DNA of 52,805 nucleotides, counting the filler, from Theionarchaea archaeon (GTDB lineage Archaea > Methanobacteriota_B > Thermococci > Methanofastidiosales > SZ-28-30): the NCBI GenBank assembly GCA_018992565.1. It is 3 parts of 3 records of this genome, joined end to end, with 100 filler letters (N's around TTAATTAATTAA, not from the genome) between each part and the next. Parts side by side here need not be neighbours in the genome. Positions count along the whole stretch, not along the records: positions 35,681 to 52,805 come from JACVGW010000059.1; 2 more parts are not named here. One strand, given 5' to 3'. Made by a program: the position numbers and the translations under genes. Of this stretch, positions 10,313 to 46,008 are shown piece after piece. The notes below the pieces were generated by a model. The model saw only the letters and a list, made by a program, of their open reading frames with translations, ran no database searches and was not told the origin of the DNA. Numbering within the stretch: the first letter of the stretch is position 1; every line of letters starts with the position of its first letter.

Positions 10313-10360
10313 TTTCACCAACTTAGAAACAGCCCCCTCTTCTTCCTCTAACACGCATAA

Positions 10361-10396
10361 ATAACCGAAAGCTTTATATAGTATTGTTAATCAATA
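10361..10396 (+). promoter_or_regulatory. BRE-TATA promoter followed by TATTG-N5-CAATA palindrome
   Basis: ATAACCGAAAGCTTTATATAGTATTG, identical to 44857-44882 on the minus strand; palindrome at 10382-10396. Confidence 0.75.
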
Positions 10397-10400
10397 TTAC

Positions 10401-10503
10401 GTAGCAATCTTCGGAGGTGTTACCAGGATTGCGACTCTGATTTCCAGGGGTTGGGGTTTCTCCTAACACGAGAAAAGGGTCCCAGGAAGCCCCAACCTTT
10501 TTT
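10401..10503 (+). ncRNA. candidate ~100-nt structured small RNA (sRNA-1)
   Basis: Own promoter, hairpin GCAATCT/GGATTGC, stem GGTTGGGG/CCCCAACC, T6 terminator, complementary loops GTGTTA/TAACAC; next gene has a separate TATA. Confidence 0.55.
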
Positions 10504-10541
10504 GAAAAAAGTATTTAAGATATGGAAGAGGAGAAGAACAG

Positions 10542-43024: not shown

Positions 43025-43525
43025 ATGAACCAGTCAAATGGGTCATCTCTTAACCTGCCTATCACAGTAAGAAGTGCAGTAACAAGATCAGCATATCTGA
43101 AAATCAATTTGACTACAACCTTCAAATCGTGGGGAGCCCTGTTTTTGTGTGCTGTAATGATCATTGCCACGTATCTTCTCCGTGCCATAGATGCCTCTTC
43201 TTGTAGCCTTATCGTTATCTGGAGCATAGCTTTGGTTTATTTACTGATTGTACTTGTGACTGCCGTGTACCTTGCTTATACGTCCAAGAATTCCTCGTGC
43301 TTGCTTCCGACTCTGTTCACATTTGACGATGAAAGCTTCTCCACGGAAACAGAACTTATGCAGAGTAAGGCAAAGTGGAGCAGTATTATTGCTTTCAAAG
43401 TCGTTGCAGGGTATTATCTCCTCTTCATTTCAGCAACATCATTCATTGCCGTCTCCCAGAAAGCTCTTTCAGTTGAGAATGCTGCAGCATTTGAAAAGCT
43501 GCTCCATGATAAGGTTAAGCATTGA
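43025..43525 (+). CDS. YcxB-like membrane protein
   Basis: two TM helices then FTFDDES...KWSSI...YYLLF; CTTTAA box about 25 bp upstream. Confidence 0.65.
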   Translation: MNQSNGSSLNLPITVRSAVTRSAYLKINLTTTFKSWGALFLCAVMIIATYLLRAIDASSCSLIVIWSIALVYLLIVLVTAVYLAYTSKNSSCLLPTLFTFDDESFSTETELMQSKAKWSSIIAFKVVAGYYLLFISATSFIAVSQKALSVENAAAFEKLLHDKVKH

Positions 43526-43629
43526 TCCTTCTCAGGCTTTCTAGAGGGAGTATAGTCGTCAGGCGAACTTGCACCTCTTCGAGATGGCAGATGGAAAAGA
43601 CATATATTCTATCAGTCACTGTGGACCCT

Positions 43630-44637
43630 ATGAATGTCATTAACGTGCTCAAGGAGCTTGTCGCAATTGAAAGTCACACTGATGGGAGACCTATCATCTC
43701 TCACGTTACAGGAATACTTGTAGATCTGGGCGCCCATGTCACCCGCTATGGCCCAGAACAGAAGCCTGCTATTCTGGCTGAATTCGGTACTGGAGGTCCT
43801 GTCTTCTCTGGACACCTTGATACCGTTGTCATGGGTGAGTGGGACTATGAGCAGGGACAGATTATCAATGGTAATCTCTATGGGAGAGGGAGTACTGACA
43901 TGAAATCAGGATGCGCTGCCATGATTGCAGCGGCCGAGACACTCAAAGACGATGTCCCGTTCTGCATAGCCTTCACAACAGATGAAGAAATAGGAATGAA
44001 AGGGGCTGAAGACCTGGCCAGAACAGAGACTTTAAGAAAAGCCCCCATTGTCCTGGTAGGAGAGCCAACAGGCCTGAAAGTAGGAACTGGAGAAAAAGGA
44101 GTTCTCTGGTTGGAAGGCGTCGTTAAAGGGAAACCCTCCCACGGGAGTATGCCCTGGATGGGTGACAATGCAATACTCAAGATGGCGCAGCACCTCACAT
44201 CTGTGACCCCTTACACAGAAAAAGAAGGGATGACTATCAACCTTGGACTCATAGAAGGTGGTTCACAGATTAATGTCACTGCAGACACGTGTACAGTCCA
44301 ATTTGATGTCAGGTACCCTCCCACCATGAGAAAGGAGGATGTCGTACAAGCCATGGAAACCCTGACAGGACTCCCGCTAACAGTGAAGTACGATCTTCCC
44401 CCCATATCTATTGATAGTAACAGAAAAGACATTCAACTCCTCCTGGAGCTCGCACCAGGAGCATGCACCTGCTACTTTGCCACTGAAGCTGTGAAATTCT
44501 CGCCTCCTGCCCCTGTTGTTATTCTTGGCCCGGGAGAGCAGGAAATGGCCCACCAAAAAAATGAATTCGTGAACATTGACCAGGTCAAAGAGGCGGAAAA
44601 AATCTACACAGAATACTTCAAAAGAATTTCTTCGTAA
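43630..44637 (+). CDS. M20/ArgE/DapE family metallo-deacylase
   Basis: SGHLDTV, GRGSTDMKSG, DEE, GEPT, GPG...AHQKNE. Confidence 0.9.
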   Translation: MNVINVLKELVAIESHTDGRPIISHVTGILVDLGAHVTRYGPEQKPAILAEFGTGGPVFSGHLDTVVMGEWDYEQGQIINGNLYGRGSTDMKSGCAAMIAAAETLKDDVPFCIAFTTDEEIGMKGAEDLARTETLRKAPIVLVGEPTGLKVGTGEKGVLWLEGVVKGKPSHGSMPWMGDNAILKMAQHLTSVTPYTEKEGMTINLGLIEGGSQINVTADTCTVQFDVRYPPTMRKEDVVQAMETLTGLPLTVKYDLPPISIDSNRKDIQLLLELAPGACTCYFATEAVKFSPPAPVVILGPGEQEMAHQKNEFVNIDQVKEAEKIYTEYFKRISS

Positions 44638-44644
44638 TCAACAG

Positions 44645-44843
44645 AAAAAAAGGCCAGATTTCTGGGGAAGAGGAGGGAAAATCCCTCCTTCCCTTTGGGT
44701 GATCCCTTATGCCTCCTTACTCGACCCCGCATTTCTCTCCTACCTCGAAAGGTATTAGAATGGGATAACCCCGGAGCGTGTTTCATGCTAAAAGCAGACT
44801 CATAGGAGGAAAGAATATGGCGGAAGGGGAAATCCCATCTAAT
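44645..44843 (-). ncRNA. candidate ~200-nt structured RNA (sRNA-2)
   Basis: Promoter 44857-44882; 5' stem TTAGATGGGAT/ATCCCATTCTAA; TACC-TTTCGA-GGTA hairpin; GC-rich 3' hairpins and T7 tract. Confidence 0.55.
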
Positions 44844-44846
44844 CAT

Positions 44847-44882
44847 TATTGCTAATCAATACTATATAAAGCTTTCGGTTAT
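44847..44882 (-). promoter_or_regulatory. BRE-TATA promoter plus TATTG-N5-CAATA palindrome
   Basis: 26-bp identity with 10361-10386; palindrome at 44847-44861. Confidence 0.75.
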
Positions 44883-44945
44883 ACACGTTAGTTAAAGTTA
44901 ATGATTAGTCAGAAAAGCTTATAAGGATATAGGAGTGTTATATCT

Positions 44946-45055
44946 AGGGGTGTTCCTTATGCCTCCTACCTAAGGAAAATCCAAATCATGTGGTTCGTCT
45001 GGTATGTTCTCTCCACCTGATTTGAGTTCTGAAGGGAGCACCCCTGCCTTTTTTT
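44946..45055 (+). ncRNA. candidate ~105-nt structured small RNA with anti-SD-like loop (sRNA-3)
   Basis: AGAAAAGCTTATAA promoter at 44911-44924; closing stem AGGGGTGTTC/GAGCACCCCT; two internal hairpins; T7 terminator. Confidence 0.6.
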
Positions 45056-45135
45056 GGATGGAGCTGTTTTTTGAAGACTATTTCAGCTCTGAACAGCTAT
45101 GTCAAAAAATGTGTGTCACAAAGGACATTTAGGCA

Positions 45136-46008
45136 TTATTTTTCCCTGAGAACAGGTAAGGTCATACAGTGAGGTCCTCCCCCTGCTTTTGCCAGTTCAT
45201 AACCGGGAAGGGGAAATATTTCTATTGAATGTTCTTCAAGCTCTGAGATTATGCGGGTATTCCACGAATAAGAGACTGCCAGCTTGGGATTCACCATGAA
45301 TATGTTAGGTCCAAATGCTCTGGCTTCTTCATCATTGACTTCGATGAGGGTGAATCCTTTCTCTCTCAGAAATTCCGGGAGCAGCACAAGGGCCCTGTCT
45401 GTGAATGTGCAAGCGGGGAAGAGCAGGGAGCCGGGGTGATAGAGGGCCAGATCTCTGCCCAGAATCATGAGACAGCCGTCCAGGTGCACTCTGAAAGAGG
45501 GCAAAGGGACAGCAATCACTTCTTTCACAGCGCTTCCAAGCAGGTATTCTGCAAGTTGTGAAACACCAGCAAGATTAGTGCGAGGACCGACCCCCACCAT
45601 GAGACAGTCTTCAGAAAGGTAGACCAAATCACCCCCCTCACAGGCATGGGTCACTTCCAATGTCGGTATGCCCATGTCTCTGAATAGGGGGATGAGGTAC
45701 TGTGGTTCAAAAAGCCGTGCAGGGAATAGGGGACGCATGATCAAAGCACCGTTCTTGCTCACAGATGCTATGTCCCTGGTAAACATGAGGTTGGGGCACA
45801 CTGTCTTGCCAACAAGAATGACTTCAATATGCTGGTCTCTCAGAAACTCAACATACATCTCATGCTCTTTCTTGCTTTTCTCCTGTGATACCGGTTCTCT
45901 ATACAGAAATTCTCTCTTGTTAGCTTCCGTGACCAGAGTGATTTCATCGCCAGGAGAGTGCATGATAACCTTCTTGACAGGGTAATACTCTGATTGGGCT
46001 CCATACAT
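45136..46008 (-). CDS. arginine deiminase / amidinotransferase superfamily protein
   Basis: PNLMFTRD, EGGD, RTN, HLD, GGGPHCMT. Confidence 0.88.
   Translation of the reverse strand: MYGAQSEYYPVKKVIMHSPGDEITLVTEANKREFLYREPVSQEKSKKEHEMYVEFLRDQHIEVILVGKTVCPNLMFTRDIASVSKNGALIMRPLFPARLFEPQYLIPLFRDMGIPTLEVTHACEGGDLVYLSEDCLMVGVGPRTNLAGVSQLAEYLLGSAVKEVIAVPLPSFRVHLDGCLMILGRDLALYHPGSLLFPACTFTDRALVLLPEFLREKGFTLIEVNDEEARAFGPNIFMVNPKLAVSYSWNTRIISELEEHSIEIFPLPGYELAKAGGGPHCMTLPVLREK

Follow-up and report, generated by a model that had tools for sequence, protein, structure and literature searches.

We analysed a 52,805-nucleotide (nt) stretch of DNA from Theionarchaea archaeon (GenBank assembly GCA_018992565.1), referred to here as the window, and examined in it a 498-bp gap at 44638-45135 (record JACVGW010000059.1) that holds two outward-pointing promoters, each made of a B recognition element and a TATA box (BRE/TATA), and two predicted small RNA (sRNA) genes, sRNA-2 on the - strand and sRNA-3 on the + strand. 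Each predicted gene ends in a T7 tract that is preceded by GCC on its own strand, at 45050-45056 (+) and at 44645-44651 (A7 on the + strand, T7 on the - strand). A first-pass annotation of this DNA had proposed a divergent pair of sRNA genes with mutual complementarity, each placed behind one of two outward promoters and followed by a T7 tract; the promoters and T tracts are borne out by the sequence, and together with an above-chance, apparently conserved match between the two predicted transcripts they support such a pair.

Layout and distribution of the locus

The gap, its two flanking open reading frames (ORFs) and the predicted genes are arranged as follows.

43522-44637, + strand: ORF for an M20/M28-type peptidase, left flank of the gap
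44840 (approximately) to 44645, - strand: predicted sRNA-2 transcript, ~190 nt, with ends from promoter geometry and T tract
44645-44651, - strand: T7 tract of sRNA-2; all homologues have a T-rich tail on this strand
44863-44878, - strand: BRE/TATA of sRNA-2, CCGAAAGC-TTTATATA, kept in 7/7 homologous loci
44911-44926, + strand: BRE/TATA of sRNA-3, AGAAAAGC-TTATAAGG, kept in the close group of homologues
44946-45056, + strand: sRNA-3, ~100 nt plus U tract
45136-46008, - strand: ORF for an arginine deiminase/dimethylarginine dimethylaminohydrolase-like (ADI/DDAH-like) protein, right flank of the gap

When the 421-bp core was compared by BLAST with 132 genomes of the class (E ≤ 0.001), 23 genomes were matched, all but two of them through the promoter segment or pieces of 26-32 nt. 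The two exceptions were G032, which carries the locus at 96% identity, and G001, a metagenome-assembled genome labelled Methanofastidiosia with a related, divergent locus that stands apart from the close group; both belong to one GTDB family, represented by three genomes in the collection. The 27-nt heart of sRNA-3, with up to three mismatches allowed, was found in 2 of the 132 genomes, and scanning of metagenome contigs for an exact 23-mer yielded six stretches with four distinct sequences. This brings the homologous loci to seven, six of them distinct, and in all seven both promoters, both RNAs and both T tracts are kept in an unchanged arrangement (at the place of the sRNA-3 promoter G001 has CGAAAAC-TATATATA). 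An M20-like gene end lies to the left in five of the seven; the neighbouring genes are different in locus L042 and in G001. In a comparison of the window with G032, the sequence to the right of the sRNA-3 T tract is unalignable and the M20 gene end is heavily substituted, and a search with the flanking ADI-like protein returned only distant relatives (27-42% identity), none with adjoining RNAs. Among uncultured archaea of the Methanofastidiosia/Theionarchaea group, one family-level clade conserves the two predicted sRNA genes.

An Rfam scan, which the first-pass annotation had suggested as a check, matched no family, archaeal C/D and H/ACA sRNAs, 5S, SRP and RNase P included, at gathering scores in the window or in the six related loci, the best sub-threshold scores being 18 bits against cut-offs of 54-59, and an ARAGORN scan of the window for tRNAs gave nothing. 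The two genes would represent new, uncatalogued RNA families, and for one of the two the covariation support is good. A reading of the gap as a miniature inverted-repeat transposable element or insertion sequence was discarded: its terminal 10-nt inverted repeat consists merely of the two GCC-T7 ends and is absent from G032.

Two predicted RNAs and their complementarity

The predicted fold of sRNA-3 comprises the following elements.

44947-44958 with 45033-45044, + strand: P1 helix (predicted fold)
44959-44971, + strand: single-stranded stretch AUGCCUCCUACCU (predicted fold)
44982-44993 with 45013-45024, + strand: P3 hairpin (predicted fold)
44994-45012, + strand: 19-nt apical loop, invariant

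The earlier description of sRNA-3 as strongly folded holds, with a folding energy of -38.1 kcal/mol, a z score of -4.15 and none of 200 shuffles as good. Over 44946-45056 the window and G032 are 100% identical while their flanks diverge. A covariance model, R1, built from five distinct close sequences, matched the window at 135.6 bits and recovered G032 (2e-31), G001 (3.9e-16) and a second copy in G001 (3.8e-6); four other class genomes matched at E 0.06-0.66 and were left uncounted. Covariation was read from an alignment of eight sRNA-3 matches, seven of them distinct, which was fitted to the model, and so biased toward structure, and was chosen since MAFFT misregistered P1 of G001. In this alignment 98.1% of helix cells hold standard pairs, compared to 36-55% when the partners are slid by 1-3 columns, and in 9 of the 23 pairs both partners have changed; the observed values were reached in none of 500 shuffles. 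Read directly, G001 forms a perfect 12-bp P1 from a different sequence, and the U.G pairs of P1, which would be A.C on the opposite strand, fit transcription from the + strand. Because helix pairing is kept and pairs change on both sides across homologues, these comparisons indicate that sRNA-3 is a real, stable structured RNA.

Contigs from four wetland metatranscriptome runs (X1-X4) also contain look-alikes of sRNA-3, those of two runs covering 44945-45044 and those of the other two covering parts of it; their sequence variants are the ones seen in the metagenome relatives, and in two contigs the sequence ends in GACTTTTTT. Such RNA-library contigs prove neither transcription, strand nor ends and lend weak support. 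By eye, sRNA-3 has no RUGAUGA C box and no 3' ACA. Searches for its mRNA targets with complements of the loop gave self matches and two three-mismatch matches only, and complements of the single-stranded region were not above a reversed-pattern control, so that no mRNA target set was found for it by these patterns.

Two further observations concern sRNA-3-like sequences. The second, diverged copy in G001 (L054, C226:2127-2242) stands behind its own BRE/TATA, directly after a protein-coding gene that is GrpE-like by eye, and lacks a divergent partner, which shows that RNAs of the sRNA-3 type can stand alone. In one contig of run X3 the 3' end of an sRNA-3 look-alike, followed by GACTTTTTTCTTT, is joined head to tail to the 5' start at 44945. 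The RNA may have been circularised, a relative may have a tandem copy of the gene, or the junction may be an artefact of assembly or ligation.

The landmarks of sRNA-2 all lie on the - strand.

44805-44820, - strand: seed CCAUAUUCUUUCCUCC; read from 44820 to 44805 it is the longest invariant run, CCATATTCTTTCCTCC, 16 nt
44737-44746, - strand: second purine-rich site GAGGUAGGAG, whose complement in sRNA-3 is CUCCUACCU; a 10-nt run in locus L046
44746 to 44739, - strand: invariant run GAGGTAGG, 8 nt, in the second site, complementary to CCUACCU(C) of sRNA-3
44697-44717, - strand: block AGGAGGC-R-UAAGGGAUCACCC, complementary to the sRNA-3 5' end and including the 13-mer described below
44717 to 44711, - strand: invariant run AGGAGGC, 7 nt, complementary to sRNA-3 (tied in length with AAACACG)
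44709 to 44697, - strand: invariant run TAAGGGATCACCC, 13 nt, complementary to sRNA-3
44665-44692 (approximately), - strand: 3' hairpin (predicted fold)

We infer that sRNA-2 is transcribed from the - strand because its promoter direction has been validated at other loci, the T-rich tails lie on that strand and the seed is oriented accordingly; the start would fall 22-24 nt past the TATA box. The direction of the promoter is fixed by comparison: many related genomes have sites of the same type, and 13 of the 30 examined lead within 80 nt into an ORF on the same strand that is at least 125 amino acids (aa) long. Read instead on the + strand, the left element would be a 3' untranslated region of the M20 peptidase gene or an sRNA-3 paralogue, sharing a motif with sRNA-3 but not pairing with it. 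Folding energies are equal or better on the + strand in three of six homologues, and neither they nor RNAalifold favour the - strand; the M20-like gene end lies upstream in five of seven loci; and no RNA-library contig of X1-X4 lies on 44600-44837, although such contigs drop rare RNAs and give no strand or ends, and the runs were picked by conserved words, so that missing cover there is not evidence of absence. What makes the + strand reading very improbable is that a canonical leftward BRE/TATA is present in 7/7 loci, that no + strand promoter lies between the M20 stop and the left element, that T-rich tails follow a hairpin on the - strand only, that L042 and G001 have other neighbours, and that three other sRNA genes (below) show the same promoter-to-seed orientation.

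Conservation in sRNA-2 is concentrated in short blocks. In an alignment of six homologues (232 columns) 91 columns are invariant, and the four longest invariant runs are the seed and three blocks complementary to sRNA-3. RNAalifold predicted 44 pairs, three of them changed on both sides, with no net covariation bonus; in the 3' hairpin two of nine pairs are changed on both sides. This pattern describes a candidate modular base-pairing RNA rather than a tightly folded one.

Three small palindromic hairpins of the GGGAU-AUCCC type occur in sRNA-2, at 44832-44837, 44761-44772 and 44674-44685, and might be protein-binding sites. The invariant GGAUCACC (44697-44706; GGGAUCACCC on the - strand) would be identical to the eight bases that precede CCUCC at the 3' end of 16S rRNA, maybe by coincidence.

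The match between the two RNAs centres on a 13-mer, CCTTATGCCTCCT, present twice on the + strand at 44705-44717 and 44955-44967 (at least two matches in 0 of 100 shuffles).

44955-44967, + strand: 13-mer CCUUAUGCCUCCU in sRNA-3, covering the last part of the P1 5' strand and the first part of the unpaired stretch

Because the two copies form a direct repeat on the + strand, they are complementary only if read from opposite strands, and the - strand reading of the left copy is what the promoter and T tract imply. With that reading, the exact 13-nt complementarity reported in the first-pass annotation stands, and its extension to about 20 nt with a mismatch and a bulge is recovered as a 15+5 bp helix. 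A single A/G column parts the 13-nt and 7-nt invariant runs of the block, and its G still pairs with U as G.U. For the second site the annotated match needed one correction: AGGUAGGAGAGAA at 44733-44745 is right, and UUCUCUCC lies at 45008-45015 rather than 45006-45013. The second purine-rich site is also predicted to pair with the seed region of sRNA-2 itself.

Contiguous-run statistics were used for the comparison with chance, as global and gapped scores failed to separate real pairs from dinucleotide shuffles in most genomes. In the window, L047 and G001 the two RNAs reach a longest perfect Watson-Crick run of 13 nt (0 of 300 shuffles each). Once G.U pairs are counted, the longest run measures 16-17 nt in L042, L045 and L046 (1 of 300 shuffles each), where an A-to-G change yields a G.U pair and Watson-Crick-only runs are not above chance. 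As a control, the sense strand of the left element gave runs of 7-9 nt only. The pairing run covers the single-stranded AUGCCUCCU of sRNA-3 and the end of P1, a site with the accessibility expected of a sponge pair. By cofolding, an intermolecular helix of 15+5 bp is predicted in the close group and one of 13+6 bp in G001, with a heterodimer gain of -10 to -17 kcal/mol in 6/6 pairs.

In G001 the 13-nt match falls in the invariant sRNA-3 loop and not at the 5' end. Window-type sRNA-2 against G001 sRNA-3, in which the P1 sequence has changed, reaches only 8 nt (42 of 200 shuffles), and G001 sRNA-2 matches both the window-type and its own sRNA-3. Since the G001 match uses another site and window-type sRNA-2 fails on G001, each lineage's partner appears to fit its own sRNA-3. 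Complementarity is present in 6/6 distinct pairs and coincides with the most constrained parts of sRNA-2, and so appears to be conserved in the two deep lineages available; the first-pass annotation had named a lack of conservation as grounds for abandoning the idea. That annotation had also looked to compensatory changes in the intermolecular helix: the close-group sites are almost invariant, with no double change and a single A/G change that keeps a G.U pair.

The same complementarity could be a by-product of ancestry, both sRNAs being real and the blocks being leftovers of a tandem sRNA-3 copy that came under the opposite promoter. The sRNA-3 model weakly matches the + strand of the left element, full length and in five loci (12-19 bits, E 0.013-0.9), and similar blocks are collinear on the + strand (GGGTG..CCTTATGCCTCCT..TTCTCTCC). 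These matches suggest that the pairing module arose from a tandem sRNA-3 copy now read backwards, an origin that is compatible with function and yet also feeds the by-product account, as does the lack of a double compensatory change. Leftover blocks are nevertheless hard to reconcile with three observations: the matching blocks are three of the four longest invariant runs of sRNA-2, with the sequence between them diverged or replaced; the block kept in G001 is another one, again with a perfect match of 13 nt; and perfect 13-mers would not be expected to survive neutral decay in two lineages with left elements that are otherwise unalignable. We therefore consider mere ancestry unlikely, though it deserves serious weight.

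A probable anti-RBS seed and the proposed mechanism

The inner 15 nt of the seed are identical in G001, where most other sRNA-2 sequence differs, and their reverse complement, GGAGGAAAGAATATG, is a perfect Shine-Dalgarno (SD) sequence followed by a 7-nt spacer and ATG. The exact 15-mer occurs in 5 of the 132 class genomes (a reversed control pattern matched once), and only the family has it in several copies: its three genomes carry 4, 4 and 3, against one copy in each of the remaining two. Outside the sRNA loci, the family copies are the actual ribosome-binding site (RBS) and start codon of the genes that follow:

G032: two S-layer genes (Pfam S_layer_C, 1.8e-14)
G033: two S-layer genes, an amino-acid permease and a DUF4212 membrane protein
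G001: a beta-helix secreted protein and a BNR-like secreted protein

Between sRNA-2 and RBS plus AUG, perfect runs reach 15-19 nt at these eight genes of three related genomes. Because GGAGG-N7-ATG sites number 336, 240 and 219 in G032, G033 and G001, reuse of one 7-nt spacer by unrelated genes is unexpected. The same seed or a two-mismatch variant of it is found in three other short sRNA genes (G032 C1, G033 C28 and G033 C74), each with a BRE/TATA, the seed ~35-47 nt downstream, a hairpin and a T-rich tail, in the orientation seen in sRNA-2; these genes had no Rfam match in a scan that covered L056, L100 and L106. That the seed recurs in this way favours a - strand reading of sRNA-2 as well as a function for the seed. 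As far as can be read from the DNA, sRNA-2 shares with sRNAs that mask RBSs its own promoter and terminator, a non-coding character and a conserved seed complementary to RBS and start codon; a + strand micro-ORF starting from the pseudo-RBS is not conserved among the seven homologues.

S-layer genes that have the same N-terminus and the same 15-nt RBS stand at contig ends on contig 31 of G032 (L060 and L062, in inverted orientation) and in G033 (L075 and L076). Their position points to a multi-copy gene that breaks assemblies.

The 15-mer might instead be simply the clade's preferred strong RBS, the CCUCC of sRNA-2 acting otherwise, by protein binding or 16S mimicry, and the S-layer match being incidental. 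This idea arises because G033 has four 15-mer genes and no detectable sRNA-2 or sRNA-3, and the functional mixture of the 15-mer genes would also fit. Yet the identical spacer recurs 2-4 times per genome among several hundred candidate sites, the seed stays invariant where most other sRNA-2 sequence differs between lineages, the match extends to 17-19 nt for some targets, and G033 has two short sRNA genes with variant seeds. On these grounds we judge the preferred-RBS account improbable.

The predicted sRNA-2 also contains a small ORF, and the first-pass annotation had considered an antitoxin-like RNA masking its RBS. Under a type I toxin-antitoxin reading, sRNA-2 would be the mRNA of a toxic peptide starting at ATG 44732 and sRNA-3 the RBS-masking antitoxin RNA. 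In type I loci such as tisB/istR and zorO/orzO, divergent genes share short trans-complementarity, and the toxin peptide is usually hydrophobic. The present locus resembles them in divergent transcription and in short complementarity that includes an SD-like sequence; in the window, SD-like GGUAGGAG lies 4 nt (AGAA) before ATG 44732 and is complementary to sRNA-3. It differs from them in having no conserved toxin ORF: the ORF is 42 aa in the window, 31 in G032, 7 in L042, absent from L045, L047 and G001, and 34 aa of different sequence in L046, so that it is lost or reframed in five of the seven homologues, and the peptide is basic rather than a hydrophobic membrane peptide. No small ORF on either strand is conserved across the seven. 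Because of this lack of conservation the toxin-antitoxin reading fails, and we give it almost no credence.

The explanation we favour, by a little more than even chances, is that of two independent, divergently transcribed genes of which one specifies an anti-RBS sRNA coupled to a partner sRNA. In this scheme the 5' seed of sRNA-2 (CAUAUUCUUUCCUCC) would pair with the SD, spacer and AUG of S-layer and other envelope and transport mRNAs and most likely block translation initiation. The 3' module, with its two invariant purine-rich blocks, would pair with the 5' part of sRNA-3, including GCCUCCUACC of its single-stranded stretch, in a ~20-bp helix that opens P1. Because of this pairing and opening, one RNA could titrate or remodel the other, acting as sponge or activator. 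From these matches it seems probable that sRNA-2 is an anti-RBS sRNA and that its second module is directed at the neighbouring RNA, and we infer its transcription, both pairings in vivo and a regulatory effect from sequence features, conservation, sRNA-3 covariation and complementarities that are themselves observed. The earlier idea of an anti-SD regulator and its sponge thus survives with its roles changed, the anti-RBS element now being the sRNA-2 5' seed at 44820-44805.

Several points weigh against this reading, besides the matched + strand of the left element, the strand-neutral folding energies, the contig gap over sRNA-2 and the 15-mer genes of G033 described above. Only two deep lineages are available; the intermolecular helix shows no compensatory double change; and gapped local or global RNAduplex scores are not clearly above composition-matched shuffles in 4/6 genomes. 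Contrary to the first-pass annotation, which had called both RNAs strongly folded, sRNA-2 folds no better than shuffles (z -0.84; 44 of 200 shuffles equal). A related idea, that sRNA-3 binding frees the sRNA-2 seed, was rejected as not consistently predicted among genomes: seed pairs in monomer versus dimer went from 11 to 3, 12 to 7, 8 to 8, 6 to 6 and 3 to 3, in a comparison that leaves out L046, whose run missed the first seed base.

A more specific version of the favoured explanation is a two-RNA envelope switch, in which the anti-RBS sRNA would silence S-layer, surface and transport mRNAs through a shared 15-nt RBS "address" and would itself be controlled by the neighbouring sRNA, pairing directly with it as a sponge or displacing an internal anti-seed. 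We hold this version tentatively and regard it as rather doubtful. S-layer genes are usually among an archaeon's most highly expressed, and one exact RBS common to unrelated envelope genes may serve as a common regulatory address. If true, the envelope switch would be the first archaeal sRNA-sRNA regulatory pair, as well as the first case of a post-transcriptional regulon whose members are defined by an identical RBS. Targets are known for few archaeal sRNAs, and the locus supplies concrete, testable pairings, namely a 15-19 nt sRNA-to-RBS match for S-layer genes and a ~20-bp match between neighbouring sRNAs, both amenable to in vitro work with synthetic RNAs though the organisms are uncultured.

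The proposal has partial parallels among characterised sRNAs. Methanosarcina mazei sRNA41 and sRNA154 are described as archaeal sRNAs that mask RBSs (PMC5867862), and sRNA162 is reported to act on cis- and trans-encoded mRNA targets through two distinct domains (PMC3510493). Like these three, the RNAs considered here are intergenic, with their own promoter and terminator and a proposed translational repression by RBS masking, and the two domains of sRNA162 recall the two modules proposed for sRNA-2. They differ in that there is no sequence or Rfam relation and the phylum is another, that the 15-nt seed, known here from sequence alone, matches S-layer and envelope genes at their SD, spacer and AUG, and that the second sRNA-2 module is aimed at another sRNA and not at an mRNA. 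In bacteria, RosA of Bacillus subtilis is described as a sponge that acts on the sRNA RoxS (PMC8216469). RosA is reported to have sites complementary to a C-rich pairing region of its partner and could titrate it, and sRNA-2 has two such sites for the CCUCCU of sRNA-3; the present case differs in being archaeal, in the adjacency of the divergent genes and in the sponge-like RNA itself bearing an anti-RBS seed. Among the literature matches listed there was no archaeal sRNA-sRNA pair and no sRNA aimed at S-layer genes, which is no proof of absence, and the word "sponge" does not occur in a review of archaeal sRNAs (PMC5867862).

A generic promoter and its other occurrences

The sRNA-2 promoter is, by its distribution, a generic strong promoter of the clade. 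In the window it also precedes sRNA-1 (10398-10504), whose 26-nt promoter at 10360-10385 is identical to that of sRNA-2. The first-pass annotation had taken this identity as a hint of a three-RNA network; the sharing is real, but it carries no such hint, since the promoter is clade-generic and common across the class. The complementarity of sRNA-1 to sRNA-2 and sRNA-3 is at chance level, with runs of 7 nt only that were equalled in 109 of 200 and 56 of 200 shuffles, respectively, and a three-RNA network is not supported.

Many genomes of the class contain copies of a ~45-nt promoter module (CCGAAAGCTTTATATAG plus tattgattagcaataatgattag), which is found in the window at 10360-10504 and 44840-44883 and at loci L005-L039. 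It precedes protein genes and also many short units consisting of a hairpin and a T tract, several of which have CCUCC stretches (e.g., L018, L020, L021, L023, L007 and L013); an ARAGORN scan of 24 loci with the generic promoter found no tRNA genes. The recurrence of the module suggests a large uncatalogued sRNA repertoire in the class.

Within the gap, a perfect 10-nt inverted repeat (CTAATCATTA / TAATGATTAG), kept in the close group, lies at 44839-44848 and 44899-44908 with its arms 50 nt apart, one overlapping the predicted sRNA-2 start and the other just upstream of the sRNA-3 BRE. It could be a shared operator or the remnant of a third generic promoter.

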